DNA of 64,000 nucleotides from an uncultured Acidimicrobiia bacterium (lineage in GTDB: Bacteria; Actinomycetota; Acidimicrobiia; Spongiisociales; Spongiisociaceae): the NCBI GenBank assembly GCA_958295745.1, contig OY282370.1, positions 1,295,724-1,359,723 on the forward strand, written 5' to 3'. Position numbers and translations under genes: made by a program. Of this stretch, positions 692-27,154 are shown piece after piece (the first letter of the stretch is position 1; each line of letters begins with the position of its first letter). The notes beneath the pieces are model-generated. The model worked only from the letters and a program-made list of their open reading frames with translations, searched no databases and was not told the origin of the DNA.

Positions 692-978
692 CGTTTTTCG
701 CGTTCTCCGCCCAAAACCTCCGGCTTCGCCGGGCCCTGCCCCCGCCGCCACCGATCCACCGTCTTCGGGCCGCCGGGGGCGTGTCCGCCCGGCTTGTGCC
801 CGATCCGTCTCAGCACAGCTAGTCCGACCGCCCCCGCCCCTTGGAGGCCCGCCCGGGAAGATGACCGAAGGGTCGGCGCCTCTGGGCCGGGGAGTGGTCT
901 TCTATGACCCCAGTGATCCGCGGAGCCACTGGAATATCTGTTATCCAACACTATACACCCTACCTATGACAATTTCAA
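692..978 (-). ncRNA. Candidate promoter-driven structured RNA/leader element, copy A (orphan, transcribed leftward)
   Basis: Minus-strand -35 TTGAAA (973-978), 17-nt spacer, -10 TATAGT (950-955). Downstream hairpin CCAGTGG..CACTGG, then GGTCATAGAAG, then a conserved core ending CGTTTTTCGCGTTCTC at 692-707 (plus-strand representation). Roughly 85-90% identical to copy B over the core by eye. Confidence 0.4.
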
Positions 979-1032
979 TACCCTTGTTCTCCATCCTCGG
1001 TTTCTGCTTGGAGGGAAATCCGCAGGGGGTGC

Positions 1033-1908
1033 TCAGCCGGAGACGATCCGGATCGGTGCGCCCATCGCCTCCTGGGGGTGGATATCTATGACCCCACTCA
1101 CTTCCCTGACTAACCGGACCCCGTTGCGGCGCAGCACGGAGGAGGTTGCCGCTAGATCCGCCGAAGACAGGACCAGCCGGTCGGGACCCGGCAGCCATCG
1201 ATCCGGTCTGGAGGCGGCGGGGTGATCCGGTTCGGGGGCGGGTGCGTAGATATCCAAGACAAAGCGCCCGAGGCGGCAGCACCAGTGAAGGCCTTCCATG
1301 ATCCAGCATCCATCCGCCAGCCCCAACCCCTGCTCGCAGATGCGCACCGCCGCCTCCACATCGTCCACCCGCAGGCTGATCCCGGCCACTCCCCCCACCC
1401 GATTTTGATGGCGCCAGGAAGGGTGTCCGCCGCCGCCGCCGCCCGCCGTCAGCTCCTCCTCCCCGGTGATCCAGTCGATCAGATAAGGCCACGGCTTGCG
1501 CCACGGGGAGCCGCCCGGCACTACCAGCCGCCACTCCACCAGCCCTCCGTCCGGCCGCATCCTGTTCATGTAGAAGGGGTCGGCGGTCTCGATGCCCAGC
1601 GCCCTGAACCGGGCCGCTTCCCGATCCAGACCGGATCCGGCCAGCACGTAACCCGCCAGGCCCGCCCCCCGGCCTGCCAGGAAGTCCACCAGGTCGGCCC
1701 CGAACCGTCCGGCGGCCCGCGCCCGATCCGGGTCTTCCACGGCCAGCAGCTCCAGGTAGTCGAGGCCGAAGCGGACGATGGCGTTGCGGGTGCCGAGCGA
1801 AGGGTGGCGCCCGCCTGCTTCCACCTCGAAACCGAGCCTGCGGAAGGCCGACATCCCCGCCTCCAGATCGGTCATGGCGACCACCGCATGGTCGAAACGT
1901 ACGATCAT
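1033..1908 (-). CDS. VOC-family (glyoxalase/bleomycin-resistance/dioxygenase) two-domain protein
   Basis: ORF 1033-2157. Internal ATG at 1908 gives MIVRFDHAVVAMTDLEAG.., a typical VOC N-terminus. The region upstream of that ATG is low-complexity. Confidence 0.55.
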   Translation of the reverse strand: MIVRFDHAVVAMTDLEAGMSAFRRLGFEVEAGGRHPSLGTRNAIVRFGLDYLELLAVEDPDRARAAGRFGADLVDFLAGRGAGLAGYVLAGSGLDREAARFRALGIETADPFYMNRMRPDGGLVEWRLVVPGGSPWRKPWPYLIDWITGEEELTAGGGGGGHPSWRHQNRVGGVAGISLRVDDVEAAVRICEQGLGLADGCWIMEGLHWCCRLGRFVLDIYAPAPEPDHPAASRPDRWLPGPDRLVLSSADLAATSSVLRRNGVRLVREVSGVIDIHPQEAMGAPIRIVSG

Positions 1909-1994
1909 TCCCGCCTCCTCCACTCCGCTTGCCCGGCGGTGACGGTACGCCCGCCGCCCGCCGTTGCTGTAATACGGGAGCGCTCCTCTGGTCC

Positions 1995-3026
1995 TTACCG
2001 GCCGCCCGCCAGCGCAGGCAGCACCTCTTCGGTCACCCTTCGGAACTGCGCCGCCTCGTCGCGGCCGGCCAGCCGCAGGGTGATGGTGGTGGCCCCCGCC
2101 TCTACGAAGCGGCGGATCCGGGCGGCGCACCGCTCGGGATCCCCGACCGCCGCCCACCGATCCAGGAACCCCCGGTCGTATTCCACCCCGTAGTATTCGG
2201 CCAGGTAGGAGGCGACTTCTTCCATGCCCCGGGCGCGGTCGTCGGTGACGTATATGTTGTAGTACAAGCAGGCCTCGAATCCAGCCCCGATTGGGCGGCC
2301 TTCCTCGGCGGCGTAGCGGCGGATGTCCGCCAGGTTAGCCGCGAAGCTGTCCGGCGTGTTGGCTGTGGTCATCCAACCGTCGCCCAGCCGGGCTACCCGC
2401 CGCAGCGCCCGCTCCGCCAGCTTCGGGAAGGCGGGGTTGGGGTTGGCGGTCACCCAGATCGGCAGGGGCTGCTGCACAGGACGGGGCAGCACGGTCACCC
2501 CTTCGAAGCGGTTGTAGGTGCCTTCGTAGGAGGCGTTCTCGGTGGTGGACACCAGGCGCAGCACCTCGATAGCCTCCTCCATCCGCCGGCTCCTCGTGGA
2601 GGGGTCGATCCCGAAGGCGGCGAATTCCTCTTCGAACCGCCCTCCCCCCGCTCCCCGCTGCCCCTGGCAGGCCGCGAATATCGACCGGCCCCCGGAGAGA
2701 TGATCGAAGCTGAGCCACTGGTAGGCCATCAGCAACGCGTCCCGCAGCGGAGTGCTGGCCATACATCCCACTCCCAGCCGGACCCGTTCGGTGAGGGCCG
2801 CCAGCGCACCGAGGGCCACGAACGCGTCCAGCCTCGGTTTGGCGAAGATCGAGTCGCCCAACCAGACCGAGTCCCACACCTCGGCGGCGTCGGCTTCGGC
2901 GGCCAAGGCCAGCATCTCCTCCACCGTGGACATCCCCAGCAACACGCTGCGGTTCGACAGGGTGAGCCCGTACTTGGCCCTGCCTCCGTTCCGACCCTCC
3001 ACCTCTGGTACCTCCTGTTCGGACAT
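1995..3026 (-). CDS. LLM-class (luciferase-like) flavin/F420-dependent oxidoreductase
   Basis: ORF 1995-3068. ATG at 3026 is preceded by AGGAGG. Protein motifs (..VWLGDS..TERVRLGVG.., ..ITLRLAG..) match luciferase-like monooxygenases. Confidence 0.65.
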   Translation of the reverse strand: MSEQEVPEVEGRNGGRAKYGLTLSNRSVLLGMSTVEEMLALAAEADAAEVWDSVWLGDSIFAKPRLDAFVALGALAALTERVRLGVGCMASTPLRDALLMAYQWLSFDHLSGGRSIFAACQGQRGAGGGRFEEEFAAFGIDPSTRSRRMEEAIEVLRLVSTTENASYEGTYNRFEGVTVLPRPVQQPLPIWVTANPNPAFPKLAERALRRVARLGDGWMTTANTPDSFAANLADIRRYAAEEGRPIGAGFEACLYYNIYVTDDRARGMEEVASYLAEYYGVEYDRGFLDRWAAVGDPERCAARIRRFVEAGATTITLRLAGRDEAAQFRRVTEEVLPALAGGR

Positions 3027-3176
3027 CAGCGCCCACCCGCCGCCGCCCGGAATCCTAACCCCCGGCACTGGGAAGCTGGCGGCCCGGGCTCAGGAAGGCG
3101 GCTTCCGGAACAGGCTGCCAAGCCGTCGAACCCTCTACTCCTGCCAAGAAAATGGGCGTAAACCGGAACAAGGGTA

Positions 3177-3545
3177 TTGTTGTTGTCACATCAATGCTGT
3201 ATAGTGTTGGATAACAGACCCCGCAGCGGTCCGGAAGCTGCGGTCATAGAAGTCGTCCCATCCACAGAGACGCCGTCGCTTCGGACAGGTTACGGCGGCG
3301 GTCCGGAATGGGCAGGACGGTTGAACTTGCTGTGCTGAGACGGATCGGGCACGGGGCCGGGCGAGCACGCCCCCCGCGGCCCGAAGACGGTGGATCGGTG
3401 GCGGCGGGGGCAGGGCCCGGCGAAGCCGGCAAGTTTCGGGCGGAGAACGCGAAAAACGATTCTGGGCCGGTACATCTGGTCGTCTCGGCGGCCCGATTGC
3501 GAAATAGTTCTCTTACCAGAACAGGCTGGTCCACCGGCCCGGATC
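3177..3545 (+). ncRNA. Candidate promoter-driven structured RNA/leader element, copy B (orphan, transcribed rightward)
   Basis: -35 TTGTTG (3177-3182), 17-nt spacer, -10 TATAGT (3200-3205). Hairpin CCGCAGC..GCTGCGG co-varies with the copy A hairpin. GGTCATAGAAG follows, then the core GCTGTGCTGAGACGG...GAGAACGCGAAAAACG (3329-3458). Confidence 0.4.
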
Positions 3546-3566
3546 GACTATTCGTAAAGGCTTGGC

Positions 3567-5150: not shown

Positions 5151-5487
5151 ACCTCGGCGCCATCGCTTCGAGTTCCTGCCCTGCGCCCCTTCATCACAGC
5201 GGTTCGCAGTCGGCGGTCGTCGTTCATTCGCTCCGTCTCCTTCCCGAGAACGAACCTCACAGCACCGGGTTCTCCATCCCGCGCAAAGCCGCTCCGCAGA
5301 ACGCCCCTCCTCTCCGCCTTGCTCGGAGGTCGAACACAGCTCCACTCCAAGATAGCGAACAGCATCGATCTATCTTCTGACAACGTATGCGGCGGGGGCC
5401 ACGGTTTCGAAACCTCGGACAGACAGAGCGAACCGCAACCCGCGAAAATCCCCGCCGGAATCCCTTACCCGGCATCCCCGACCGCAG

Positions 5488-6708
5488 TCAGCGGCGGAGC
5501 TCCTCCAAACGGTCCTCCATGGTCGCACGCAGGCGGTCGGTGACGGGCGGGTCGAAGCCGATATCGGAGGTTCGCTCGATCCAGACGGCGGCCTTGTCGC
5601 ACAGCGCGGCGATCTTGCGGGCCGCCAAGCGGGGCGGCAGGCCGAGGGATTCGGCGAAGCGTATCCAGTCGGATCCCCTGATGCGGTTGCGGCGGCCGTC
5701 CACGTGTAAGGCCTGCAGATCGTTCGGGATATAGGGGCTCGTGCTGATCAGGTCGTACACCGGGGTCGGCTCCACCATCTGCTGAGCAGGCAGCCAACGG
5801 ACGCTGATGTTCTTGGCGTGCATGTCCCCGTTGGCGATCAGATACGAAAAGGCGGCCAGCCGAACCAGCTCCAGCGCCGCCGGTTTCGGGGCCGACGCCA
5901 CCGCCGTCACCGCCCCCGCGGCCTGCCGCAACGACAGGCGGTACTTGTCGGCGGGCCATCGTCCGGCCAGCTGGCACACGTCCTCTTGGGCGAGGCGCAC
6001 CACCCGCTCCCCTTCCCGCACCCGGTCGAACCGCTCCACCAACAGCCCGGAAACCCCGTCTCGGTCCTCGACGACCTTGTGCGGAGGCACCCGGAAACCG
6101 CACCCTTCGGCCATCCCCAGAAAAAAAGCCTCGTTCTCCACGAGCCGCGGATAGAGCGGCGGGGTCAGTTTCAGGATGGCCGGCCCGCCCCCGATCTCCG
6201 CCGGAAAGGAAATCAACCCATCTGACAGCTTGTCCTGCACACCGGGGAGAGCCGTATCCAGCTGCGGGTCGGAAACCGCCACCGAGCGGGCGAACAGCTC
6301 TCGGAACGACACCCCGCCTGGATCAGACACCCCCGACCCTTCCCCCGGATCGCGGGGCCGCTCCCCGACCGGAACCACCGTGACGTTGCCCACCGTATCC
6401 CCGCCAACAGCCAGCAACAAAGACAGCTCGTCGTCGAGGGAAGTCTTGACCGCCCTGACAACCGCCTGCAGCCGCACTCCCTCCGGCAGGAGCCCGGCGA
6501 AGAAGGCCGGCACCGACCCGCCCGCCGTGATATACGGCTCGTCGCGGACCGGCAAGGTAGAAGCCACCCCCCGATAGCCGCCCCGCCTGTAGGAAGGGTC
6601 GTAGTCGAACTCGACATGATCAGGCCGCCGCCGCAGCCGTCCGGCCAGGATGCCGCCCTGATAGACATCGGCCGCATCTACCGAAGCTATTTCTGCCGGG
6701 TCGATCAT
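5488..6708 (-). CDS. hipA: HipA-family Ser/Thr kinase toxin
   Basis: N-terminal GNVTVVPVG, P-loop-like LPGVQDKLS and the catalytic LIANGDMHAKNISV motif (D-x-H-x-K-N). The ATG at 6708 overlaps the hipB stop (ATGA). Confidence 0.75.
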   Translation of the reverse strand: MIDPAEIASVDAADVYQGGILAGRLRRRPDHVEFDYDPSYRRGGYRGVASTLPVRDEPYITAGGSVPAFFAGLLPEGVRLQAVVRAVKTSLDDELSLLLAVGGDTVGNVTVVPVGERPRDPGEGSGVSDPGGVSFRELFARSVAVSDPQLDTALPGVQDKLSDGLISFPAEIGGGPAILKLTPPLYPRLVENEAFFLGMAEGCGFRVPPHKVVEDRDGVSGLLVERFDRVREGERVVRLAQEDVCQLAGRWPADKYRLSLRQAAGAVTAVASAPKPAALELVRLAAFSYLIANGDMHAKNISVRWLPAQQMVEPTPVYDLISTSPYIPNDLQALHVDGRRNRIRGSDWIRFAESLGLPPRLAARKIAALCDKAAVWIERTSDIGFDPPVTDRLRATMEDRLEELRR

Positions 6709-6923: not shown

Positions 6924-6945
6924 CCGAGAGCCCGCATACGCAATA

Positions 6946-6989: not shown

Positions 6990-7118
6990 AGCCTATATGT
7001 GATAGATACGTAACTTTCCTTCTGGTCGTCAGGAGTGCTCGGCCCCCTTTGACATGCACCACACCCGACCATCAGGTATTCCCACCAGGGGGCAACGTCC
7101 CCGGTTGTCACAAACCAG

Positions 7119-17388: not shown

Positions 17389-17623
17389 CGAACTCCTCTC
17401 ACCGCTCTGGCAAATACTCAAATCGACTCCGCCTAATGAAGAGAGACGATAGCACCGTCTACCAAGACCCTTGGAGTTGCCCCGGTTTTGTGGACGGTTT
17501 TCGGCCTTGGGTTTCATACATCTCTGCTCTGAACACATACCGGCCTTGCCCCGAAAGGCCTGCCGGAGTCCGGAACGGAGCGCCTACTCTCACCGCCGGT
17601 CCGGAGCCGCTACCGTGCTCTCT

Positions 17624-18739
17624 GTGGCGGGACCCCTGTCAGACATCACCATCATCGATCTCACCCGGCTGCTGGCCGGCCCCTACGCCACCATGGTGCT
17701 CGCCGACCTCGGGGCGCGGGTCGTAAAGGTGGAACACCCGGACCGGGGAGACGACGCCCGGCAGGTAGGACCGTTCCTGGGGGAGAGGAGCGTGTATTTC
17801 GAGTCGCTGAACCGGGGCAAGGAGTCCAGGCCGCTCCGTCTCGACGACCCCGACCACCGGAGAGAGTTCGAAGCCATGCTCGACGAGGCCGACGTGCTGG
17901 TGGAGAACTTCCGCCCCGGCGTCATGGACCGGATGGGATACGGGTGGGACGCCCTGCATGCCCGCTGGCCCCGGTTGGTGTACGCGGCGGTCTCCGGGTT
18001 CGGGCAGACCGGGCCTTATGCCGGGCGGCCCGCCTACGACCTGGTCGTCCAGGCGATGGGCGGGGTGATGAGCCTGACCGGACGGCCGGGCGGCCCTCCC
18101 TCCAGGGTGGGCACCTCGGTGGGCGACATCACCGCCGGGCTGTTCGCCGCGGTCGGCATCCTGTCCGCCCTCCACGACCGGGCGCGGACCGGAGCGGGCC
18201 AGATGGTGGATATCGCCATGCTCGACTGCCAGGTGGCCATCCTGGAGAACGCCATTGCCCGCTATGCGGCCACCGGGGAGGTCCCGGCGCCGCTCGGCGC
18301 CCGCCACCCTTCGATCACCCCGTTCGACGCCTTCGCGGCGGACGACGGGCCTTTGGTGATCGCCGCCGGCAACGATGCATTGTTCGCCGCCCTCTGCCGG
18401 GCGCTGGACAGGGATGATCTGCCCGAAGACCCGAGGTTTGCGGACAACCGACGCCGCACCGAGAACGCCGCGGCGCTGAAGACCGAGATCGAAGGGGTGC
18501 TGAGCGGCCGCACCGCGGCGGATTGGCTGGAGCGGCTGGAGAAGGCCGGGGTGCCGTGCGGTCCCATCAACGACATCGCGGCGGTGGTCGGCGACCCCGG
18601 GGTGAGGGCCCGCAACATGATCGTGTCGGTCGGCCTGCCGGACGGATCGACCGTCGAGACGGCCGGCAACCCCGTCAAGCTGTCAGGCCACGAAGACCCG
18701 CCGACCCGTCCGCCCGCCCCCGGCCTGAGGACAGGCTGA
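17624..18739 (+). CDS. CoA-transferase family III (CaiB/BaiF-like)
   Basis: GTG at 17624 (or 17615). Motifs ..ITIIDLTRLLAGPYATMVLADLGARVVKVE.. are typical of family III CoA-transferases. Confidence 0.7.
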   Translation: MAGPLSDITIIDLTRLLAGPYATMVLADLGARVVKVEHPDRGDDARQVGPFLGERSVYFESLNRGKESRPLRLDDPDHRREFEAMLDEADVLVENFRPGVMDRMGYGWDALHARWPRLVYAAVSGFGQTGPYAGRPAYDLVVQAMGGVMSLTGRPGGPPSRVGTSVGDITAGLFAAVGILSALHDRARTGAGQMVDIAMLDCQVAILENAIARYAATGEVPAPLGARHPSITPFDAFAADDGPLVIAAGNDALFAALCRALDRDDLPEDPRFADNRRRTENAAALKTEIEGVLSGRTAADWLERLEKAGVPCGPINDIAAVVGDPGVRARNMIVSVGLPDGSTVETAGNPVKLSGHEDPPTRPPAPGLRTG

Positions 18740-18975
18740 CCGCAACCCACCGCTTCCCGACGCTCGGATGCACCCGGCCGTCGCATAGTTGTCACACCCC
18801 TTATATATATTGAGCAGCATGATACAACGTTCTGATACGAGGACAGCCGGGGTGAGGGGACCATGCAGGAACACTGCCGACAACGCAGAAAGGGGAGGAA
18901 GCACACTATCGTGGAGGGTCGTGGAAGCGGAGAACCGGACTTGACCACGGCTGTCACCTTCGGGACGGAGGTCTC

Positions 18976-20175
18976 ATGACCGGCGCGCCGTCCAATGCCC
19001 GGACCCGGAAACCGGTTATCAGCCGCCTGGTCCGCGCCGCGGCCCACTCGCCTATCTCCGAGGCGCGCGCCCGGGCGGCCGTCGAGCCTTCCGGCACCGG
19101 CCTTCCCCTCTTGGACGTGGCCCAGGCCACCCCCGGCTATCCGCCCGCGCCAGGGCTGCAGCGGCGGATGGCCGAGCTGGACCATCGAGCGGTCTCCCGC
19201 TACGGGCCGGTCCTGGGCGAGGCGCCGCTGCGCGAGGCGCTCGCCCGGGAGCTGACCTTCGCCTACCGGGCCCCGGTGCGACCGGAACAGGCGGCGATCA
19301 CCGCCGGGGCCAACCAGGCCTTCTGCCTGGCCGTCTCGGTGTTGTGCGAGCCGGGCGACGAGGTGATCCTGCCCATCCCCTACTACTTCAACCACGACAT
19401 GTGGCTGGCCATCAACGGCGTCGAGGCGGTATACCTGCCCTGCTCCGGAGACATGCTTCCCTCCCCGGCGGACGCCGACGCCCTGCTGACGGAACGAACC
19501 AGGGCGGTGGTGCTGGTGACGCCCAACAACCCGACCGGGCGGGTGTACCCCCCCGCCCTCATCTCGGCCTTCGCCGACCTGGCCGCAGAAAGAGGAATCT
19601 GCCTGATCCTGGACGAGACCTACCGGCATTTCCGGAGCACCGCGGAGCCCGCCCATCATCTGTTCAGGGACCCGGACTGGGACCGGCACCTGATACATAT
19701 CGACAGTTTCTCCAAGGTGTACGCCATAACGGGCTACCGGGTGGGGGGCTTGGCCGCCTCCCCCGGCCTGCTCACGGAAGCCGAGAAGGTCGCAGACTGC
19801 CTGACCATCTGCCCCAACCGCCTAGGCCAGGAGGCGGCCCTCTACGGGCTGGGCCGCCTGGAAGGGTGGGTCGAGGAAAACCGCCGGGCGGCGTCCCGCC
19901 GGATCGGGGAGTTCACGAAGACGGCGGGCGGGCGCCCCTACGAAGTGGCCTCGGCGGGCGGCCACTTCGTCTACGTGCGCCATCCTTTCGAGGGGGCGCC
20001 GGCCCGGGAGGTGGCCCAGCGCCTGTACGACGAGCAGGCCGTGTTGGCCCTGTCGGGGGACATGTTCGGCCCCGGCCAGGACCGCTACCTGCGGCTGGCC
20101 TTCGCCAACGTCTCCGACTCCGACGTCCCGGAGCTGGCCCGCCGCCTAGCCGAGAGCGCCCTGATGTTCGCCTAG
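18976..20175 (+). CDS. PLP-dependent aminotransferase (class I/II fold)
   Basis: SFSKVYAITGYRVG lysine motif, and the NPTG box. Confidence 0.75.
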   Translation: MTGAPSNARTRKPVISRLVRAAAHSPISEARARAAVEPSGTGLPLLDVAQATPGYPPAPGLQRRMAELDHRAVSRYGPVLGEAPLREALARELTFAYRAPVRPEQAAITAGANQAFCLAVSVLCEPGDEVILPIPYYFNHDMWLAINGVEAVYLPCSGDMLPSPADADALLTERTRAVVLVTPNNPTGRVYPPALISAFADLAAERGICLILDETYRHFRSTAEPAHHLFRDPDWDRHLIHIDSFSKVYAITGYRVGGLAASPGLLTEAEKVADCLTICPNRLGQEAALYGLGRLEGWVEENRRAASRRIGEFTKTAGGRPYEVASAGGHFVYVRHPFEGAPAREVAQRLYDEQAVLALSGDMFGPGQDRYLRLAFANVSDSDVPELARRLAESALMFA

Positions 20176-20617: not shown

Positions 20618-20627
20618 GGACCCTCCC

Positions 20628-22448
20628 TTACTCCACGGTGACGCTCTTGGCCAGGTTCCGCGGCTGGTCGATGTCGCGGCCCAGCAGGCGGGCGGTGTGG
20701 TAGGCGAGCAGCTGGAGCGGAACTGCGGCCAGGATCGGGGACAGCAGATCGGCGGTGCGGGGCACCCGCAGGACACGGTCCGCCACCAGGTCGATCTCTT
20801 CGTCGCCCTCGTAGGCCACGGCTATGACCATGGCGCCCCGGGCCTTCACCTCCTGGAGGCTCAGCAGCAGCTTGCCGTATAAGTTCTGCTGGGTGGCCAC
20901 CGCCACCACCGGGGTGCCTTCGTCGACCAGCGCCAGCGTGCCGTGCTTCAGCTCCCCTGCGGGCATGGCCTCCGCATGTATATAGGAGATCTCCTTGAGC
21001 TTGAGGGCGCCCTCCATAGCGCTCGCGTAGTCGAGTCCCCGGCCTATGTAGTAGACGCTGGACGCTCCGGCCAGCTCTCCGGCCAGCAGGCGAAAGGGAT
21101 CCTGATCAGCGAGGACGCGGGCCGCCTTGTCGGAGAGGGAGTGCAGCTCTTCGACCAGCTTCCGCTCCTGGTCGGGGCCGGTGACGCCCCGCGACCGCCC
21201 CAGCCGGAGGGCCAGCAGGCATTCCCCCACCAGCATGGCCAGGTAGGCCTTGGTGGAGGCGACGGATATCTCCGGCCCCGCCCACGTGTAGAGGACTTCG
21301 TCCGCTTCCCGGGCCAGGCTGGACCCCACCACGTTGGTGAGGGCCAGCAGGCGGGAACCGCGCCGGCGGGCCAGCTTGGCGGCGGCCAGCGTGTCGGCGG
21401 TTTCACCGGACTGGCTGACGGCGAGCGTCAGGGAGCGGTCCCCGATGAGAGGATTCGAATAGCGCAGCTCGTGGGCGTATGCCACCTCGGTCGGCACGGC
21501 GGCCAGCCGCTCGAACATGGTCCGCCCGACCAGGCCGGCGTGGTAGGCGGTGCCGCAGGCGGTGATCCATATCTTCTGCACGTCCGCCGGATCGCCTTCC
21601 GCCCATGACAGGTCGGCCAGCGCCTTGCCGCCGTGGATGCGGCCGCCGAGGGTGCGGGCGATCACCTCGGGCTGTTCGTGTATCTCCTTGAGCATGAAGT
21701 GGGCGAAACCGGCTTTCTGAACCGATTCGTTGTCCCATTCGGCGGTAAAGGAGCGCCGCTCGACGGGACGGCCTTCGAGGGTCTCGATCCGGGCGCCGTC
21801 CCTGGTCACCTCGGCTATCTCACCGTCTTCGATGATCAGGAACTCGCGGGTGTAGTCCAGCACCGCCGGCATGTCGGAGGCCAGGAAGGTCTCCCCCTCT
21901 CCGAGTCCCACCACCAGAGGGCTGATCATCCGGGCCGCCACGATCCGGCCCGGTTCGCGGGAGGTCATCGCCACCAAGGCGTAGGCCCCGGAGGCCCGGC
22001 GCACCGCCCGGCGGACGGCTTCCTTCAGGTCTCCTTCGTACTCGAGGGCCAGCAGATGGGCAAGCACCTCCGTGTCGGTCTCGGAGCGGAACCCGACTCC
22101 GGCGCCCTCCAGCTCGCTCCGCAGGGCCCGGAAGTTCTCCACGATCCCGTTGTGCACCACCACGAAATCGCCTGTGTTGTCGCTGTGAGGGTGGGCGTTG
22201 CGGTCGGAAGGCGCCCCGTGGGTGGCCCAGCGGGTGTGCCCGATGCCTGCACGGCCGGGAAGCGGCGCCTCCTCCAAGCGGGCCAGCAGCCGATCGAGCT
22301 TGCCTTCGGCCTTCGATATGGCCACCGACCCGTTGTGGGCCACGGCGAGGCCGGCCGAGTCGTAACCCCGGTATTCCAGACGGCGCAACCCGTGGACCAG
22401 AACTTCCTGCGCCGGCCGGGGACCCACATAGCCGACGATCCCGCACAT
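20628..22448 (-). CDS. glmS: Glutamine--fructose-6-phosphate aminotransferase
   Basis: MCGIVGYVG N-terminus (catalytic Cys2) and two SIS domains. GGAGG lies 8 nt upstream of the ATG at 22448. Confidence 0.9.
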   Translation of the reverse strand: MCGIVGYVGPRPAQEVLVHGLRRLEYRGYDSAGLAVAHNGSVAISKAEGKLDRLLARLEEAPLPGRAGIGHTRWATHGAPSDRNAHPHSDNTGDFVVVHNGIVENFRALRSELEGAGVGFRSETDTEVLAHLLALEYEGDLKEAVRRAVRRASGAYALVAMTSREPGRIVAARMISPLVVGLGEGETFLASDMPAVLDYTREFLIIEDGEIAEVTRDGARIETLEGRPVERRSFTAEWDNESVQKAGFAHFMLKEIHEQPEVIARTLGGRIHGGKALADLSWAEGDPADVQKIWITACGTAYHAGLVGRTMFERLAAVPTEVAYAHELRYSNPLIGDRSLTLAVSQSGETADTLAAAKLARRRGSRLLALTNVVGSSLAREADEVLYTWAGPEISVASTKAYLAMLVGECLLALRLGRSRGVTGPDQERKLVEELHSLSDKAARVLADQDPFRLLAGELAGASSVYYIGRGLDYASAMEGALKLKEISYIHAEAMPAGELKHGTLALVDEGTPVVAVATQQNLYGKLLLSLQEVKARGAMVIAVAYEGDEEIDLVADRVLRVPRTADLLSPILAAVPLQLLAYHTARLLGRDIDQPRNLAKSVTVE

Positions 22449-22916
22449 GTGCGCCTCCAACCCACTCGTTCGACAACCACGGTAGACACTACTAGGGACA
22501 GGGCGGCATATAGCGTCTCACGGCAGGCCGGTGCGGACGGTCAAGCGCTGTCTGCCCCAAGGGTTCGGGGCAACCCGTTTCCGAGGAAGGCGGCCCCTGC
22601 CCACCCTCCTACTCACAGAACCCGCCTTCGCTCGGCATCCTGCAGGTCAGTCTCGTCGTTGCCGTAAAGCGCCTGGCCAATCGGGGTCGGTAAAACCGGG
22701 CTTCGCACCTCGAGAACGCGAAAAACGACCCACCTCCGCCCCCTTCGGGCCCGGCCCCCACCTCCTCCACTCCGTTTGAACGGTCGTCTTGGGCGTGCGG
22801 GGCTTGGGAACCCTCGGCGCTCAACACGACCTGGAATGATCACCGCCCTCCGGAGCAGAAGTGATATTTGTGATATCGGTATATATTGTTATACAACATT
22901 CTTGGGACAAGTTCAA
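22449..22916 (-). promoter_or_regulatory. glmS promoter plus about 430-nt structured leader (element copy C)
   Basis: Minus-strand -35 TTGAAC (22911-22916), 17-nt spacer, -10 TATAAC (22888-22893), with the shared upstream GAACAAGGGT motif. The 5' hairpin ATCACTTCTGC..GCGGTGATCAT is shared with copy D. GGGCCGGGCCCGAAGGGGG is present, and the GAGAACGCGAAAAACG box appears in inverted orientation (plus-strand 22712-22727). Confidence 0.45.
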
Positions 22917-22944
22917 GACCCTTGTTCGAAATCTCTTCGGTTTT

Positions 22945-24357
22945 TCAGCCGAGCTCGCCTGCCACGACTTCTGACAGCTCCAGGGCGGTCGAACGGGCCG
23001 TCTCCATGGTGGGGGCCTCGACCATCACCCTGACCACGGGTTCGGTGCCCGAAGCTCGAACCAGGATCCGCCCGTCTTCGCCCAGCTCCGCTTCGGCGGC
23101 CCGAACCGCCTTCCACACCCGGGCCGCCCCGTCCAGGTCCTTGGACCGGACCGGCACGTTCTCCAAGACCTGAGGGAACTCGACGAGAGCCTCCCTGCGC
23201 AGGTCGCGTATCGGGCGCCCGGCGGCCGCCGCCACCTCCAGAAGCCGGACGGCGGTGCGCAGCCCGTCCCCGGTACGGGCCCGATCTAGCTGGATCACAT
23301 GGCCGGACTGCTCCCCGCCCAGGAAAGCCCCATGCCGCAACATCGCCTCCAGCACGTACCTGTCGCCCACCCGGGTCTCGATCAGCTCGATGCCTTCCCG
23401 GCGCATGGCCCGGCGGAACCCCAGGTTGGACATGACGGTGGCCACCACCCGGTCGAGGCGCCCCAGGCGTCGCAGGTGACGGGCGATGACGGCCAGGATC
23501 ACGTCGCCGTTGGCGGCCGCACCGTCCTCGTCCACCACGATCAGGCGATCGGCGTCCCCGTCGAAACACAGCCCGATCCGCCCTCCGGCCGCCGCGGCCA
23601 GGCTCTCCGGGCAGGTGGCCCCGCACCCGTCGTTGATGTTCATGCCGTCCGGCGCCCCGAAGTACTCCTCCACGTCGGCGCCGAGTTCTTCGAACAGGCG
23701 CCTAGCCGCGCCCGAAGCCGCCCCGTTGGCGCAGTCGAGGGCCAGCCGGAGGTCTGCCAGCCCGCCCGCAGGGGTCTGGCGGAGGATGCCTTCCAGATAA
23801 CGATCGACCGCATCCGGGAAGGGACGGCGGAGGCCGATGCCCGCCCCGGTCGGCGCCTTCCAAGGCCCTCCCTTTTCCAGCCGGCTCTCGATCTCCCCCT
23901 CTGCGCCGTCGTCCAGCTTGCCGCCCCGCTCGTCGAAGAACTTGAAACCGTTGTCGGGGGCGGGATTGTGGGAGGCCGACACCATCACCCCGAGGCGGGC
24001 GCCCAGATCGGAGACCAGATCCGACACCCCGCCCACCGGAACGACCCCCGCATCGATGGTGTTCACCCCCACCGAATGGAAGCCGGCCTGCAGCCCGGCG
24101 CCGAGCATCTCCCCGGAGCGGCGGGTGTCGCGCCCCACCAGGACCGCCCCTCCGCCGATCAGCTCGCCGGCCGCCCGGCCCAAATCGAACGCCAAGGGCA
24201 CGCCGAGGTCGAGATTGGCCACCCCTCGGATGCCGTCGGTGCCGAACAGTCGGCGGGATCGGACGGGCCCGGAAGTCGGGGCCCCTGGAAGAACGTCTGG
24301 CTCCGCCGATTGCGGCCCCTGTCGGCCTGCCCCTCGGCGCCCAGGTATTTCAGTCAT
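22945..24357 (-). CDS. glmM: Phosphoglucosamine mutase
   Basis: ..LFGTDGIRG.., the active-site region SASHNPAPDNG and the ..GDGDADR.. motif. The N-terminal approximately 25 aa may be an extension, because the start is uncertain. Confidence 0.85.
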   Translation of the reverse strand: MTEIPGRRGAGRQGPQSAEPDVLPGAPTSGPVRSRRLFGTDGIRGVANLDLGVPLAFDLGRAAGELIGGGAVLVGRDTRRSGEMLGAGLQAGFHSVGVNTIDAGVVPVGGVSDLVSDLGARLGVMVSASHNPAPDNGFKFFDERGGKLDDGAEGEIESRLEKGGPWKAPTGAGIGLRRPFPDAVDRYLEGILRQTPAGGLADLRLALDCANGAASGAARRLFEELGADVEEYFGAPDGMNINDGCGATCPESLAAAAGGRIGLCFDGDADRLIVVDEDGAAANGDVILAVIARHLRRLGRLDRVVATVMSNLGFRRAMRREGIELIETRVGDRYVLEAMLRHGAFLGGEQSGHVIQLDRARTGDGLRTAVRLLEVAAAAGRPIRDLRREALVEFPQVLENVPVRSKDLDGAARVWKAVRAAEAELGEDGRILVRASGTEPVVRVMVEAPTMETARSTALELSEVVAGELG

Positions 24358-24405
24358 CGACCGACGGCCGCCGTCGTCTTGCGGCGCCCTCCCCGAATAT
24401 CACAC

Positions 24406-24798
24406 CTAGCGCTTGGTGTACTGGGGCGCCCGTCTGGCTTTGCGGAGACCGTACTTCTTGCGCTCCACTACCCGCGCATCCCTGGTGAGCATCCCGGCCT
24501 TCTTCAGGGACATGCGCAGATCGGGGTCGATTTCGATCAGTCCGCGGGCGATGCCCAGGCGCAGGGCGTCGGCTTGGCCGTTGGTCCCGCCTCCGTGCAA
24601 CCTGGCCACTATGTCGTAGCGGCCTTCCACGTTGGCCACCCGCAGGGGCTCGAGCACCCGCATGCGCCGGGCCAAGGTCGGGAAATAGTTCTCCAAGGGC
24701 CGATCGTTGAGGGTCATCACGCCGCTGCCGTTGTAGAAGCGAACCTGCGCCACCGACTCCTTGCGGCGGCCCGTGGCCTGTACCAAAGGCTTGTTCAT
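24406..24798 (-). CDS. rpsI: 30S ribosomal protein S9
   Basis: 130 aa ending ..RRAPQYTKR. The ATG at 24798 overlaps the rplM stop. Confidence 0.9.
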   Translation of the reverse strand: MNKPLVQATGRRKESVAQVRFYNGSGVMTLNDRPLENYFPTLARRMRVLEPLRVANVEGRYDIVARLHGGGTNGQADALRLGIARGLIEIDPDLRMSLKKAGMLTRDARVVERKKYGLRKARRAPQYTKR

Positions 24799-25259
24799 CA
24801 GGAACCCACCTTCCGGAGACCCAGGTCGAGCACCTCGGGGTTCTGGGCCTGGTGCGGATGCTCGGAGCCCGGGTAGACCTTCAGTTTGCGGATCATCCGC
24901 CGACCCAGCCTGTTCTTGGGCAGCATGCCCCGCACGGCCCGCTCGATCACCGCCTCCGGGCGGCGGCTGATCAGGCTCTCGAAGGATTCCTCCTTGAGGC
25001 CGCCCGGGTAACCGGAGTGCCGGTAGTAGATCTTGTCCCGGCTCTTGTTGGAGGAGACCGCCACCTTCTCGGCGTTCACCACCACCACGAAATCCCCCCC
25101 GTCCACGTGGGGGGCGTAGGTCGGCTTGACCTTGCCGGAGAGGATCGGGGCGAGGCGCGAGGCCAAGCGGCCCAACGGCGCATCGGCGGCGTCCACCACG
25201 TACCAACGGCGTTGGACTTCGGCCGGTTTCGGCGAATAGGTCTTGAGTCTGTTCACCAT
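24798..25259 (-). CDS. rplM: 50S ribosomal protein L13
   Basis: ..[18 protein letters not shown].. is a typical L13 N-terminus. Confidence 0.9.
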
Positions 25260-25265
25260 CCCATC

Positions 25266-26024
25266 CTAACGGTGCTCGTTCCCGAACGCCACATCGTAGT
25301 CCACCCGCCACAACACCAAACCGTGGGGCGGCGCCGCGCCCCGGGCCGCGTTCCGGTCCCGGGCTTCGAGCACCCTCACGGCCTCCTCCGGCGCCAGCCG
25401 CCCCCTGCCCACCTCGACGGAGAAGGCGGCGATCGACCTGACCATCTGATGGCAGAAGGCCAATCCTTCGATCTCCAGGCAGAGCAGTCCGTCGGGCAGG
25501 CGCCGCCAACCGGCCGACGTCACGGTGCGGACCGTCGAGCGGCCCTCGGCCTTGCGGCAGAATGAGGCGAAGTCGTGCTCCCCCACGAAATATCCGGCCG
25601 TTTCGTTCATCGAGGCCGCGTCCAGCGGGTGCGCGACGTGCCAGACGGTGAAGCGGCGCAGAGGGTCGGGGTGGGGCCGGTCGAGTATCCGGTACCGGTA
25701 GGTGCGTCGGGCGGCGTCGAACCGGGCCGAGAACCCGTCGGGGACCCGCCGGCAGCGGTAGACGACCACTTCGGGGCCGAGCAGCCTCGTCAGGGAGAAG
25801 GGCAGTCGGCGGCAGTCGACCGGCGTCTCGGTGTGAAACGAAACAACCTGATGGCGGGCGTGCACCCCGGCGTCGGTGCGGCCCGCCACCGCGGTGCTGA
25901 CCGGTTCGAGGATGCGGGCCAGGGCGGCTTCCAGCTCTCCCTGCACGGTGCGCACGTCCGGTTGCCGAGCGTAGCCGCGGAACCCGGATCCGTCGTAGGA
26001 CAGGTCGAGGCGGTAGGTGGGCAT
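25266..26024 (-). CDS. truA: tRNA pseudouridine(38-40) synthase
   Basis: ..GRTDAGVHA.. carries the catalytic Asp. The gene sits between rplQ and rplM, as in other actinobacteria. Confidence 0.85.
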   Translation of the reverse strand: MPTYRLDLSYDGSGFRGYARQPDVRTVQGELEAALARILEPVSTAVAGRTDAGVHARHQVVSFHTETPVDCRRLPFSLTRLLGPEVVVYRCRRVPDGFSARFDAARRTYRYRILDRPHPDPLRRFTVWHVAHPLDAASMNETAGYFVGEHDFASFCRKAEGRSTVRTVTSAGWRRLPDGLLCLEIEGLAFCHQMVRSIAAFSVEVGRGRLAPEEAVRVLEARDRNAARGAAPPHGLVLWRVDYDVAFGNEHR

Positions 26025-26043
26025 CGATCTACCCGGTGGCCAC

Positions 26044-26568
26044 TCAGACGGCGGCCGGGAACAGAATCGTCCCTATGTACCAGCCGAGGACGCCGGCGGC
26101 GGCGAGGAAGCTGTTGCGGGGGTGCCTCATATCGAAAAGGGCGTCCGCCACCACCCGCAGGGCCAGGAAGAACCATAGGAGCGACAGGGCGAGCAGAGGT
26201 ATGCGCAACAGGTCCGCCCAGACCGCCGCTATCAGCGGGAGGAAGGCGACGTGGGCGAACCCGACCAACCGGAAGGCCGAGGCCAGACTGCCGTAGCGCT
26301 TGAACAAGTGGACGCCCGCCGCCCAGACCGCCCCGGCGGCCAAGCCCGCCCGCACGATGCTCCACAGCGCCGCCGACGCCGCAGCGACCACCGACGGGGC
26401 GGCCAGCACGGGGAGCACCGAGACGAGGACGATGACCACCACCGCGTTGCCGGTGGCGTAGTTGTCATGGCGCAACGACGTGTAGAAGGACCTGTCTAGC
26501 CGCCCTGCGCTGAAGATCTGACCGAACACGGCACCTCGCACCGAAGACTCGGCAGAGGCTACCAGCAC
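26044..26568 (-). CDS. Integral membrane protein, Yip1-domain-like (hypothetical)
   Basis: 174 aa with 4-5 predicted TM helices and no recognisable catalytic motif. Confidence 0.45.
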   Translation of the reverse strand: MLVASAESSVRGAVFGQIFSAGRLDRSFYTSLRHDNYATGNAVVVIVLVSVLPVLAAPSVVAAASAALWSIVRAGLAAGAVWAAGVHLFKRYGSLASAFRLVGFAHVAFLPLIAAVWADLLRIPLLALSLLWFFLALRVVADALFDMRHPRNSFLAAAGVLGWYIGTILFPAAV

Positions 26569-26575
26569 AAGGGTA

Positions 26576-27154
26576 TTGACTTGTCGCAGCTACTCGATAT
26601 GATGATAACTGTAGAACAATACAAACATCACTTCCGCAGTCCGGACAGCGGTGATCATATGAGCGAGTCCCGCACCGGGACGAGCAAAACTAGCTGTGCC
26701 GAGACGGATAGGGCACGGAGAGGGAACACGCCCTCTCGCCCCTGAGACGGTGGATTGGCGGCGGCGGGGTGGGGCCCGGCGAAGCCGGGGATTTGGCGGG
26801 GAGAACGCGAAAACCGGCGGCTGGCGGGGGGCAACACCGGAAGGACGGGGCTTGGTTCAACGGTGGGGCGGTCGAAGCGACCTAACCTTGCGCCTACCGC
26901 AGATGCACTCTCGAAAGGCTCGGCTACCTACGATCCCGTCCTACCGAGGCCGCCTTGAGAACCCAACCCGGTTTCGGCCCGACCAAGGCCTTTCCAAAGC
27001 GTCGTGGGCGACGCCAGCGGCCCCCGGGCAGGCCGGCTCGGCGTCGGCCGCCGGGCAGGGGAGCCCCAACTCGACGATGGGTGTTACCACCCGGACGGCG
27101 GATGATCCGTCCTGAGGTCGCTTCGATGGGGCGTCCGTTGGTCATGGCAAGAAT
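26576..27154 (+). promoter_or_regulatory. Promoter plus about 550-nt structured leader (element copy D) in front of the low-GC two-gene module
   Basis: -35 TTGACT (26576-26581), -10 TATGAT (26598-26603), upstream ACAAGGGTATTG. 5' hairpin ATCACTTCCGC..GCGGTGATCAT. Core TAGCTGTGCCGAGACGGATAGGGCAC...GGCCCGGCGAAGCCGG...GAGAACGCGAAAACCG at 26693-26816. Confidence 0.45.

Follow-up and report, generated by a model that had tools for sequence, protein, structure and literature searches.

The 64,000-nt window of contig OY282370.1 (GCA_958295745.1), from an uncultured Acidimicrobiia bacterium, carries four copies (A to D) of a previously undescribed modular family of non-coding RNAs. That this family is independently promoted, structured and lineage-specific to a clade of uncultured Acidimicrobiia is well supported. 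Copy C is the 5' leader of glmS, about 430 nt long, and contains the exact complement of the 3'-terminal box of copies A and B. Our preferred reading, which we hold tentatively, is that stand-alone members of the family act in trans on paralogous leaders, including that of glmS.

Four copies of two subtypes

The first-pass annotation had described four loci with a promoter module in common and a 5' hairpin that keeps its pairing despite changes in the stem, and every feature it listed was found in place. Its locus boundaries had to be redrawn. According to blastn, the repeated unit covers 692-989, 3166-3459 and 26561-26817, and the additional segments 3460-3545 (B), 26818-27154 (D) and 22449-22700 (C) are copy-specific flanks (Table 1). 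In the same comparisons, A aligns with B over 301 nt at 80% identity, both match D at 80% identity over ~133 nt in addition to the promoter, and C matches D at 72% identity over 99 nt. Copy D is a mosaic, C-like in its 5' part and A/B-like in its core.

The conserved core ascribed to all four copies is indeed present in A, B and D, where the box GGCCCGGCGAAGCCGG is exact and the box GAGACGGATNGGGCAC has three matches (0.46 expected). Comparison of the four copies showed that GCTGTGC...GACGGTGGAT is absent from C, whose similarity to the other three is confined to the promoter and the 5' hairpin, a G-tract with its hairpin-like segment, and the inverted box. Hence, the set consists of three copies of one subtype and one of another.

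The family is built of four parts. The first is a promoter whose -10 element is near-consensus and is preceded, at a distance of 12 nt, by an invariant GTC; in the genome of copies A to D the promoter additionally has a consensus-like -35 element and the upstream box GAACAAGGGTATTG. It is followed by a stem-loop near the 5' end, whose stem covaries and whose self-complementary UCCGGA loop is invariant, and by CAU on the 3' side of this stem-loop. The middle part is variable and GC-rich, and in subtype I it contains a conserved core of three helices, the internal loops of which are rich in purines. The 3' module comprises a G-tract (GGNGGNGGN(1-2)GGGGG), a CCCGGCGAAGCCGGG hairpin and a box of 13-17 nt. 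In subtype I (A, B and D in this genome; E152 and E160 in relatives) the terminal box reads GAGAACGCGAAAA. In subtype II (C in this genome; F1, F2 and the L154 copy in relatives) its reverse complement UUUUCGCGUUCU occupies the same position and the RNA runs on into an mRNA, either glmS (C and F1) or that of an aminotransferase (F2 and the L154 copy).

The search of related genomes that had been suggested with the first-pass annotation was carried out through the neighbours of GlmS (83-99% GlmS identity) and yielded homologs at partly different intergenic sites: E152, E160, E158, E161, E157, F1, F2, the L154 leader and matches to the models R1 and R2. No reading frame is shared across the copies, and indels between them are not multiples of three. 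Together with the covariation of the 5' hairpin and the homologs in relatives, these frame-breaking indels uphold the earlier view that RNA structure, and not a coding sequence, is under selection. The element had also been left without a known family, and the family copies have no Rfam match at the gathering threshold or even at E<=10. It had been proposed to be either a new leader or a new sRNA family; both roles occur. The glmM gene (22945-24357) lies upstream of glmS, for which C is the leader. A and B are followed by genes on the opposite strand (GC3-based gene calls, Pfam), and these two copies appear to be stand-alone RNAs of ~250 nt with inferred ends. Copy D is counted as the third stand-alone copy, but two same-strand ORFs are found 340-390 nt downstream of it, and it may therefore be a leader.

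Table 1. Positions of the family copies, their parts and associated features in the window.
Feature	Position	Strand	Description
Copy A	692-989	-	Subtype I, ~135-nt core
A promoter module	950..989	-	GAACAAGGGTATTG 989-976; -35 TTGAAA 978-973; TTGTC (-26 element) 972-968; -10 TATAGT 955-950
A transcription start (inferred)	near 943	-	
A 5' stem-loop	907..935	-	Loop UCCGCGGA, then invariant GUCAU
A core stem-loop	744..819	-	R1 145 bits; P1 GCUGUGCUGA with UCGGUGGCGGC; internal loop GAGACGGAU on one side, GAAGACGGUGGAU on the other; P2 UCGGGC/GCCCGA; closed by GC-rich P3 hairpin
A 3' module	692..752	-	G-tract GGUGGCGGCGGGGG 752-739; hairpin CCCGGCGAAGCCGG 735-720; box GAGAACGCGAAAAACG 707-692
Copy B	3166-3459	+	Subtype I, ~135-nt core
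B promoter module	3166..3205	+	GAACAAGGGTATTG 3166-3179; -35 TTGTTG 3177-3182; TTGTC 3183-3187; -10 TATAGT 3200-3205
B transcription start (inferred)	near 3212	+	
B 5' stem-loop	3221..3243	+	CCGCAGC/GCUGCGG; loop with UCCGGA 3230-3235, then UCAU
B core stem-loop	3329..3405	+	P1, P2, P3; R1 147 bits
B 3' module	3397..3459	+	G-tract 3397-3410; hairpin 3414-3429; box GAGAACGCGAAAAACGA 3443-3459, predicted mostly unpaired
Copy C	22700-22943	-	Subtype II, within glmS 5' leader
C promoter module	22888..22927	-	GAACAAGGGTCTTG 22927-22914; -35 TTGAAC 22916-22911; TTGTC 22910-22906; -10 TATAAC 22893-22888
C transcription start (inferred)	near 22881	-	
C 5' stem-loop	22839..22865	-	AUCAC...GUGAU; loop UCCGGA 22854-22849, then CAU; R2 61.5 bits
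C 3' module, inside glmS leader	22700..22768	-	G-tract GGAGGAGGUGGGGG 22768-22755; short hairpin GGGCCCGAAGGGGGC; reversed box
Copy D	26561-26817	+	Subtype I, ~135-nt core
D promoter module	26565..26603	+	GCACAAGGGTATTG 26565-26578; -35 TTGACT 26576-26581; TTGTC 26581-26585; -10 TATGAT 26598-26603
D transcription start (inferred)	near 26610	+	
D 5' stem-loop	26627..26655	+	AUCAC...GUGAU; loop UCCGGA 26640-26645, then CAU
D core stem-loop	26693..26765	+	P2 with compensatory C-G -> A-U; R1 141 bits
D 3' module	26757..26816	+	G-tract; hairpin 26773-26788; box GAGAACGCGAAAACCG 26801-26816, one mismatch
glmS (proposed target)	20628..22448	-	606 aa; protein P0001 100% identical; GATase and SIS Pfam domains
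Probable 3' remnant of a decayed family member (tentative)	5390..5450	+	GCGGCGGGGGCC...CCGCGAAAATCC, upstream of YjeF-family gene
Extra GTC-N12-TAnnnT promoter	18789..18811	+	TTGTCACACCCCTTATATATATT, upstream of aminotransferase gene, without RNA body

A common promoter type

The upstream motif ACAAGGGTNTTG has four exact occurrences, at 976-987 (-), 3168-3179 (+), 22914-22925 (-) and 26567-26578 (+). Tolerating one mismatch raises the count to five (0.33 expected), the fifth being the one-mismatch site 17463-17474, and TTGTC follows the motif in 4/4 copies. The -35/-10 pairs given in the first-pass annotation are all present, with spacers of 17 nt in A, B and C and 16 nt in D, as is the promoter TTGACG-17-TATACT that it had pointed out at 47008-46980 (-). 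What had escaped it is the invariant GTC at -26 that is common to the promoters. In the alignment, this GTC and the TA of the -10 element are unchanged in 13 of 13 family promoters, even in those devoid of the -35 element and the upstream box. The pattern GTC-N12-TAnnnT has four matches in the window against 0.15 expected, and its geometry is that of the PafBC promoter consensus, tGTCgg(N10)tA(N3)T (PMC8635444). At the site orthologous to the extra promoter at 18789..18811, relatives have a leader-type family member.

RNA structure

The hairpins, including their compensatory changes, are as originally described. When homologs from other genomes are aligned with the copies, 95% of the cells of the 5' hairpin are paired (22-64% with the partner slid), compensatory double changes occur in four of the eight pairs, and none of 500 shuffles reached its score. 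The corresponding values for the subtype-I core are 90% and 31-58%, with three compensatory pairs, and several of its G-U pairs are valid on the promoter-sense strand only. Few independent lineages underlie the core covariation. Thermodynamic stability varies: the E152 RNA is more stable than shuffled sequence (z = -2.73), and that of B does not exceed shuffled sequence in stability (z = +0.23). Segment 26689-26817 of D has zero substitutions relative to a 99% strain, and conservation of the core extends to species between which neutral intergenic DNA can no longer be aligned.

The terminal box and the glmS leader

The last box of C had been reported as inverted, and it does lie on the opposite strand relative to the C promoter (22712-22728, +). 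The consequence that the first-pass annotation missed is that C is complementary to A and B: at 22728-22712 its transcript has the sequence UCGUUUUUCGCGUUCUC, which is exactly complementary to the B box (17 nt) and to the A box (16 nt). Pairing with the glmS-leader box is perfect over 17 bp for B and over 16 bp for A, and extends to 15/16 for D; the computed energy of the 17-mer duplex of the B and C boxes is -26.6 kcal/mol. The 16-mer GAGAACGCGAAAAACG has four matches in the window (0.03 expected), and the A-B homology stops at 692, the end of this box. The predicted unpaired probability of the box is 0.56-0.76, compared with 0.36-0.42 for the whole RNA, and no cis partner of it beats a shuffled box. 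Across genomes, both orientations are kept at the same position between diverged flanks. Box orientation goes with context: all four leader copies have the U-rich form, and A, B, E152 and E160, which no gene follows, have the A-rich form. The complementarity arises from inversion of a box common to both subtypes.

As the stand-alone boxes are the exact complement of the glmS-leader box, the stand-alone RNAs may regulate glmS and, judging by their sequences, probably act on the leaders in trans. The largely single-stranded 3' box of a stand-alone RNA would form a duplex with the leader box, possibly after a first loop-loop contact between the identical palindromic UCCGGA loops, and this duplex would alter how the leader is processed, how stable it is or how it folds and, with that, GlmS output. 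Since the sRNAs and their putative target have one promoter type, they would respond to the same signal, and the GTC-N12-TAnnnT geometry suggests that it may act through a PafBC-like sigma-adapting activator. The C box is situated ~265 nt upstream of the glmS start codon, and no contact with the ribosome-binding site is predicted. In the genomes of L152, L157, L158 and L160, subtype I is found close to glmS, yet the U-rich box is missing from the glmS leader. Hence, glmS cannot be the sole target, if it is a target at all.

Other explanations of the family

The conserved motifs could instead be recognised by one RNA-binding protein or RNase adaptor, which the stand-alone copies would titrate off the leaders, box pairing being incidental. 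Titration of this kind is known from GlmY/RapZ and CsrB/CsrA. The recognised motifs would be the 5' stem-loop with its UCCGGA loop, the G-tract and the GAA hairpin. Indeed, the best-conserved features in both subtypes are single-stranded or loop motifs and not helices, namely the UCCGGA loop, CAU and, in the G-tract, the GG doublets, between which the 1-nt spacers are free to vary. A decoy would also fit the occurrence of multiple strongly promoted stand-alone copies in one genome and their presence in some genomes without a box-bearing glmS leader. However, no candidate protein gene lies beside any copy, and the 100% retention of the reversed box specifically in leaders is left unexplained. 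We regard titration as an unlikely account.

We give somewhat less credence still to an explanation at the level of DNA, in which the copies are portable expression cassettes of a promoter and a stabilising 5' hairpin, and the box, instead of being an RNA pairing partner, is an asymmetric double-stranded site that could act as a roadblock or bind a pause or termination factor or a nucleoid protein. Such a site would tolerate either orientation and explain the same box conservation, and the same duplex is found in both orientations at equal distance from the hairpin. Read in its T-rich sense, the box of every copy points the same way as the nearest gene whose 3' end faces it, as would befit a directional pause or terminator signal, and promoter and hairpin alone precede unrelated ORFs in L157 and L154. 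Nevertheless, GC hairpins precede the T-run inconsistently, by 0-12 nt, and the terminator scan found no intrinsic terminator there or after the A-rich box. Beyond the family copies the box is found nowhere else in the 64 kb and hence is no terminator or site of general use, and the conserved subtype-I core with its strand-specific G-U pairs argues that the RNA itself matters.

A selfish repeat, that is, a promoter-carrying miniature mobile or recombination-spread element with a functionless RNA and with effects on neighbours as by-products, is about as improbable. The window holds at least four copies plus relics, and the copies are modular mosaics, as exemplified by D. Presence and absence at orthologous sites vary among the genomes compared: B is absent in L156 between the YjeF-family and luciferase-like genes, E-type copies follow acpS in some genomes only, and F2 is present in L156 and L154 and reduced to the promoter in the genome of A to D. 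E161, E157 and the L161 relic (21540-21660, R1 18 bits) are truncated, and the fragment at 5390..5450 corresponds to this relic. Against this stand the lack of terminal inverted repeats, of recognisable target duplications, of a nearby transposase and of plasmid, phage or viral-contig matches, as well as the persistence of the core across species. Moreover, paralogs within a genome are only ~80% identical, and perfectly conserved blocks between compensatorily changing stems are the opposite of recent amplification. The mobile element envisaged in the first-pass annotation is thus the weakest of its options, although the presence/absence pattern at orthologous sites speaks for it.

It is very unlikely that all members are or were riboswitch-like or attenuator leaders sensing a common metabolite or factor, for instance one linked to nitrogen or amino-sugar metabolism, with stand-alone copies orphaned by rearrangements: although the family precedes glmS and aminotransferase genes, the purine-rich internal loops could make a ligand pocket and the G-tract has an alternative partner in the C-rich 3' arm of P3, in the manner of an expression platform, the conserved subtype-I core resides in copies that no gene follows and the true leaders lack it, orphaned leaders would decay while A, B, D, E152 and E160 keep ~80% identity and invariant blocks, and no terminator or helix sequestering a ribosome-binding site is predicted.

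Comparison with known systems

The C leader resembles the glmS ribozyme (RF00234) of Gram-positive bacteria in being a long structured RNA in the glmS 5' UTR. However, the covariance model of the ribozyme has no match to the 430-nt leader, and the family of the leader includes stand-alone RNAs and an aminotransferase leader. The intergenic, multi-copy, modular and structured Correia elements of Neisseria, pneumococcal BOX elements and MITEs also vary in presence between related genomes and can supply neighbours with promoters; unlike them, the Acidimicrobiia copies have neither terminal inverted repeats nor target duplications, and they are old and diverged, with compensatory changes and block conservation across species.

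The promoters share GTC near -26 and the tGTCnn-N10-tAnnnT spacing with the PafBC-dependent (RecA-NDp) mycobacterial promoters, which operate by sigma adaptation, and the E-type copies are similarly devoid of a -35 element. In contrast, a near-consensus -35 is found at 16-17 nt in A, B, C, D, F1 and F2, no 'gg' follows TGTC in the family, and the products downstream are RNAs, glmS and an aminotransferase and not DNA-repair genes.

Like the csRNAs of streptococci, Qrr1-5 and LhrC1-5, which are multi-copy sRNAs with a regulator-dependent promoter in common, the family comprises several diverged paralogs per genome, with conservation from a common promoter motif to a sharp stop at the RNA 3' end and a single-stranded conserved pairing motif. 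The Acidimicrobiia RNAs differ in being much longer (~250 nt), GC-rich and without a canonical terminator, in serving also as mRNA leaders and in having the pairing motif in both orientations.

The proposed trans-acting circuit would be functionally analogous, though not homologous, to that of GlmY/GlmZ in Enterobacteria (Rfam GlmZ_SraJ, GlmY_tke1). The two share no homology in sequence or structure (Rfam, E<=10), regulation is here a proposal, the sRNAs are paralogs of the leader itself, and the site is far upstream of the start codon instead of in an SD-sequestering hairpin. Actinomycetota are not known to have Hfq, and no connection with RapZ is known. What the two systems have in common is at least two paralogous, independently promoted sRNAs of ~150-250 nt, a specialised promoter type shared by the sRNA genes, and a glucosamine-6-phosphate synthase gene with a leader complementary to an sRNA segment.

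Four loci of one RNA family

Reading the four family loci A to D confirmed all of the sequence features listed for them in the first-pass annotation. In scans of the window, ACAAGGGTNTTG occurs exactly once in each locus; when up to one mismatch is allowed it has 5 matches against 0.33 expected, the fifth being a one-mismatch site at 17463-17474. The boxes GAGACGGATNGGGCAC, GGCCCGGCGAAGCCGG and GAGAACGCGAAAAACG also occur far above chance. In pairwise blastn, A (989-692) and B (3166-3458) are 80% identical over 301 nt, D (26689-26817) matches both at 80% over ~133 nt plus the promoter, and C and D share 72% over 99 nt, which comprises the promoter and the 5' hairpin. Homology between copies ends directly after a 13-17-nt terminal motif, here called the box. 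The conserved core that had been ascribed to all four copies is present in A, B and D, but C lacks the GCTGTGC...GACGGTGGAT core. The box of C is indeed inverted, as an exact 16-17-mer on the opposite strand, at 22712-22728 (+). Copies from related genomes join A, B and D in subtype I (E152, E160) and C in subtype II (F1, F2 and a copy in locus L154).

As suspected earlier, the element belongs to no known family: no Rfam 15 family overlaps A-D, even at E ≤ 10, and SRP RNA and tRNAs are all that the whole window contains at the gathering threshold. The nearest Rfam match to the loci is an Actino-ugpB-like one at 527-608 (-), downstream of A. It scores 23 bits (E=0.38; gathering score 42.5), carries a GGAGA Shine-Dalgarno-like element with no ORF after it and is probably a chance match. 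6S, Ms1, 6C, riboswitch, retron, omega-RNA and group II intron were rejected for want of Rfam support and of associated protein genes. Nor is the element coding: the copies differ by 1-, 2- and 4-nt indels, and their six-frame translations have no reading frame in common. A chimeric six-frame "protein" query for spurious ORFs called over the element elsewhere gave no match.

Neither A nor B is followed by a gene in its own orientation, as the genes downstream of both are on the opposite strand. C sits in the glmM-glmS spacer, on the same strand as these two genes, and is thus the glmS 5' leader, ~430 nt long. D diverges from a string of membrane-protein, truA, rplM, rpsI and glmM genes. The two low-GC ORFs that follow D (58-68 aa and ~160-190 aa; window 27200-27939 and 27803-27809) form a cassette that overlaps the 3' end of rplQ and differs from its counterpart in the 99%-identical strain (L159 4356-4687) by an indel of 330 nt. 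The 3' extension of D contains a weak fragment resembling the C-terminus of the longer ORF. Decayed 3' pieces of the element, with a G-tract, a remnant of the GAA hairpin and a degenerate box, lie upstream of the YjeF-family gene at 21540-21660 (-) in locus L161 of a relative and probably also at ~5390-5450 (+) in the window.

Features of the window (67% G+C). Gene layout is from codon-position GC and Pfam.
Feature	Position	Strand	Remark
Amidohydrolase gene	end at 389	+	
A	692-989	-	subtype I
Glyoxalase-like gene	1911-1033	-	next after A
Luciferase-like gene	3029-1995	-	precedes B
B	3166-3459	+	subtype I
YjeF-family gene	5345-3567	-	after B
glmS	22448-20628	-	downstream neighbor of C
C	22700-22943	-	subtype II
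glmM	24357-22945	-	upstream neighbor of C
D	26561-26817	+	subtype I
Two low-GC ORFs	27200-27939	+	follow D after 340-390 nt of copy-specific sequence; no Pfam match
G-tract motif	739-752		in A
G-tract motif	3397-3410		in B
G-tract motif	22755-22768		in C
G-tract motif	30561-30574	+	outside family
G-tract motif	41795-41808	-	outside family
G-tract motif	62777-62790	+	outside family
G-tract motif	63566-63579	+	outside family
SRP RNA, large	49270-49538	-	137 bits
Six tRNA genes	47019-47522, 48652-48739, 49636-49725, 54339-54423		

Promoters

The near-consensus promoters reported earlier are present in every copy of the window, each with a TTG-type -35, TTGTC and then a -10 (TATAGT, TATAAC or TATGAT) at 16-17 nt. 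In the consensus scan, A and D match TTGACA-N16-18-TATAAT at 10/12 positions, and B and C also have TTG-type -35 hexamers. In an alignment of 13 promoters the GTC, the TA of the -10 and the spacing GTC-N12-TAnnnT are invariant (13/13); this pattern has 4 matches in the window against 0.15 expected. The E-type copies, the only ones in the alignment without a -35, have lost both it and the GAACAAGGGTATTG box and have kept (T/C)TGTCAC.

The geometry equals that of the PafBC (RecA-NDp) motif, tGTCgg(N10)tA(N3)T, in which PafB reads a GTC triplet at about -26 and the activator stands in for recognition of a -35 (PMC8635444). However, PafBC promoters have no -35, whereas A-D have good ones, and the "gg" of the motif is missing from the family promoters. 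Hence, judged by sequence, the likeness to PafBC promoters is a resemblance only. GAACAAGGGT was also considered as a LexA (Cheo-box-like) site and rejected, since it matches a half-site only.

A fifth promoter of the GTC-N12-TAnnnT type, TTGTCACACCCCTTATATATATT, lies at 18789-18811 (+) upstream of an aminotransferase gene (18976-20175) and has no RNA body; the orthologous position in L156 and L154 holds a leader-type family member. The promoter noted on the rpsL side was found as well: a consensus TTGACG-17-TATACT at 47008-46980 (-), directly upstream of the rpsL-side operon and without the -26 GTC of the family promoters.

RNA structure

The 5' stem-loop starts ~10-17 nt after the inferred transcription start. 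Its stem differs by lineage (CCGCAGC/GCUGCGG, UUCCAGU/ACUGGGG, CACCGCCGC/GCGGCGGU(G), AUCAC/GUGAU), and its UCCGGA loop and 3' CAU are invariant. The compensatory changes that had been taken as a sign of selection on structure hold up: 95% of the cells are paired and 4/8 pairs are double-changed, compared with 22-64% pairing in slid registers, and none of 500 shuffles reached the observed score. An antisense mini-ORF starting from the invariant CAT (ATG on the other strand) was discarded, as it is not in a constant frame with TCCGGA across the copies.

A variable GC-rich linker hairpin separates the 5' stem-loop from the core. In subtype I the core consists of P1 (GCUGUGCUGA with UCGGUGGCGGC), several G-U pairs of which are valid on the promoter-sense strand only; an internal loop with invariant GAGACGGAU and GAAGACGGUGGAU; P2 (UCGGGC with GCCCGA), where a C-G pair has become A-U in D; and P3, which differs in sequence per lineage and keeps its complementarity. 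In this core 90% of the cells are paired, as opposed to 31-58% in slid registers, with only 3 compensatory pairs, and its covariation counts, like those of the 5' hairpin, come from ~4-5 independent lineages. Relative to shuffled sequence, the folding energy of B has z = +0.23 and that of E152 has z = -2.73.

Both subtypes have a common 3' module, made of a G-tract, the hairpin CCCGGCGAAGCCGGG and, 10-12 nt further, the box. The G-tract reads GGNGGNGGN(1-2)GGGGG. Its G doublets never change within the family, and the 1-nt spacers do so freely, a pattern expected of a two-tier G-quadruplex; the tract could be such a quadruplex or a protein site. The motif GGNGGNGGNGGGGG has 7 matches in the window against 1.1 expected.

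The terminal box

The box of subtype I (A, B, D, E152, E160) is A-rich, GAGAACGCGAAAA, and that of subtype II (C, F1, F2, L154) is U-rich, (G/A)UUUUC(C)GCG(U/A)UCU, at the same position. All 4 leader copies carry the U-rich form; the A-rich form is found in A, B, E152 and E160, none of which has a gene following. The A-rich box is complementary to the C transcript at 22728-22712 over 17 nt exactly in B, 16 nt exactly in A and 15/16 in D, with a predicted duplex energy of -26.6 kcal/mol. It is also predicted to be mostly unpaired (0.56-0.76 versus 0.36-0.42 overall). No further occurrence of the box was found elsewhere in the 64-kb window, and a literature search on the box sequences and on sRNAs in sponge-associated Acidimicrobiia returned nothing relevant.

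Several roles in cis were considered and rejected. No consistent cis partner for the box scored better than that for a shuffled box. Were the U-rich box an anti-Shine-Dalgarno element, it should pair with the start region, but no such pairing is predicted in any of four leaders, including that of glmS. As a terminator U-tract, for the leader or for the facing opposite-strand gene, it is preceded by inconsistent hairpins, and the scans were negative. The 3' ends of A, B and D have no canonical Rho-independent terminator (GC hairpin plus U-run), the box being A-rich on the sense strand. Two copies have a complement of the box in the same RNA, at a distance of 30-45 nt: in L154 (14120-14222 (-)) it is GGAGGAACGCGC, which precedes the U-rich box, and in E152 (L152 12485-12545 (+)) it is GCGUUCUUC, which follows the A-rich box. 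These hint at an ancestral 3' end that may have been a hairpin with both arms, but the pattern is not general.

Homologs in related genomes

Relatives were collected by a GlmS protein search, graded from 100% to 74% identity, and the glmS neighborhoods of ten were compared; those named are "Acidimicrobiia bacterium" and "Candidatus Spongiisocius sp." The search for further copies was productive, with homologs present near glmS. In the 99% strain (L159), C and D are 97.7-97.8% identical to those of the window, with zero substitutions in the D core or either box. In the 86-87% group (L152, L160, L158, L161), acpS is followed by a subtype-I copy that faces a gene on the other strand; the copy in L161 is truncated at its 3' end. 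L156 (88%) carries two C-type copies: F1 precedes glmS, and F2 precedes an aminotransferase gene. A diverged ortholog of F2 is present in L154 (83%), which also has the promoter and hairpin as a cassette before unknown ORFs. In L157 (12262-12785) the promoter and 5' hairpin alone remain, where they would drive an inserted, unannotated 142-aa ORF. Since promoter and 5' hairpin stand alone before ORFs in both L157 and L154, this module behaves as a portable expression cassette. The L154 cassette (17058-18525) has neither core nor box and directly precedes unannotated ORFs of 80, 263 and 65 aa.

At L152 11840-12694 the public gene call lets acpS continue into a spurious ORF that spans the RNA element, so that the product has 284 aa where relatives have ~125-145 aa; this fusion is an annotation artefact caused by the element. 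In the glmM-glmS spacer of L152 (9112-9770), a low-GC insertion with two small ORFs sits where the window has C. The glmS leader of L156 (9762-9945) contains three copies of a ~37-nt repeat, CCCTGAACAGGGACAACCTCCCCGAATATCAC, each with the palindrome CCCTG-AA-CAGGG, and similar GAACAGG motifs flank A and B in the window.

Wider searches added no members. A two-box DNA pattern had 0 matches in GTDB representative genomes because it was too strict, E-type copies having GGTGGTT and not GGTGGAT. A relaxed pattern had 70 matches in metagenomes, all of them chance, since none came with any other box or with blastn similarity. A locus search based on GlmM came no closer than 59% identity, and the Acidimicrobiia that it reached lack the element.

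Interpretation and alternatives

The family is non-coding, strand-specific, structured, modular and absent from Rfam. It is kept in blocks across genomes whose neutral intergenic DNA has ceased to align, and each member either stands alone or forms an mRNA leader. We class it as a new family of bacterial sRNAs and leaders.

Our favored but tentative reading, which is possible though short of probable, is that the stand-alone RNAs use the box to act on the leaders in trans, perhaps aided by the identical palindromic loops, and that the shared promoter co-regulates the whole family. A more elaborate, self-referential system is somewhat unlikely. In it, an mRNA leader would have been duplicated into stand-alone genes and its 13-17-nt terminal box inverted. 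The paralogous RNAs would then recognize their parent leaders, beginning with a loop-loop contact of the identical UCCGGA loops and proceeding to a perfect box duplex, and would control glmS and an aminotransferase, with every member driven by a sigma-adaptation (PafBC-like, GTC at -26) promoter.

It is unlikely that the members are instead a family of protein decoys. That the box would be a site at the DNA level, combined with portable expression cassettes, is quite improbable. We give as little credence to a selfish promoter-carrying repeat. The patchy distribution and the presence/absence polymorphism at orthologous sites speak for it; B, for example, is absent between the YjeF-family and luciferase-like genes of L156. 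However, the element has internal inverted repeats only and no terminal ones, its copies are not near-identical (A versus B 80%, A and B versus D ~80% over the core only), and blastn against plasmids and phages gave no match. A pattern scan of viral contigs likewise had 0 matches. No target-site duplication is visible at the four junctions, and the empty site of L156 is too diverged to fix boundaries. A composite transposon built of the inverted pairs A/B and C/D was rejected: there are two cases only, without terminal repeats, and the arrangement is not kept in relatives. Orphaned cis-leaders are very unlikely.

Significance and comparison with known systems

Acidimicrobiia are abundant and mostly uncultured. 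We know of no regulatory RNA described in them, and a literature search was likewise empty. Little has been described, too, of how Actinomycetota that have no glmS ribozyme control GlmS. Pairing of the stand-alone RNAs with the glmS leader, if real, would mean that sRNA control of amino-sugar synthesis was invented independently here, and would illustrate the origin of an sRNA from its own target. If the self-referential reading is true, the family would be an actinobacterial equivalent of GlmY/GlmZ that arose by convergence, and an example from bacteria of a regulator born through inverted duplication of its target. Sigma-adaptation-type promoter geometry has so far been linked to DNA-damage genes in mycobacteria, and the family ties it to RNA genes in a distant actinobacterial class. 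Two covariance models built from the family could seed a new Rfam family and improve the annotation of the genomes concerned, at least one of which has acpS and the element merged into a single called gene.

Like the glmS ribozyme, C lies in the glmS 5' UTR. However, 22300-27400 has no RF00234 match at E ≤ 10, and the family element is not a glmS ribozyme. The closest functional analogue of the family is GlmY/GlmZ with glmS. Although an Rfam search found no homology to RF00083 or RF00128 in the family loci, here, too, a segment of the sRNA, namely the boxes of B and A, is complementary to the glmS leader.
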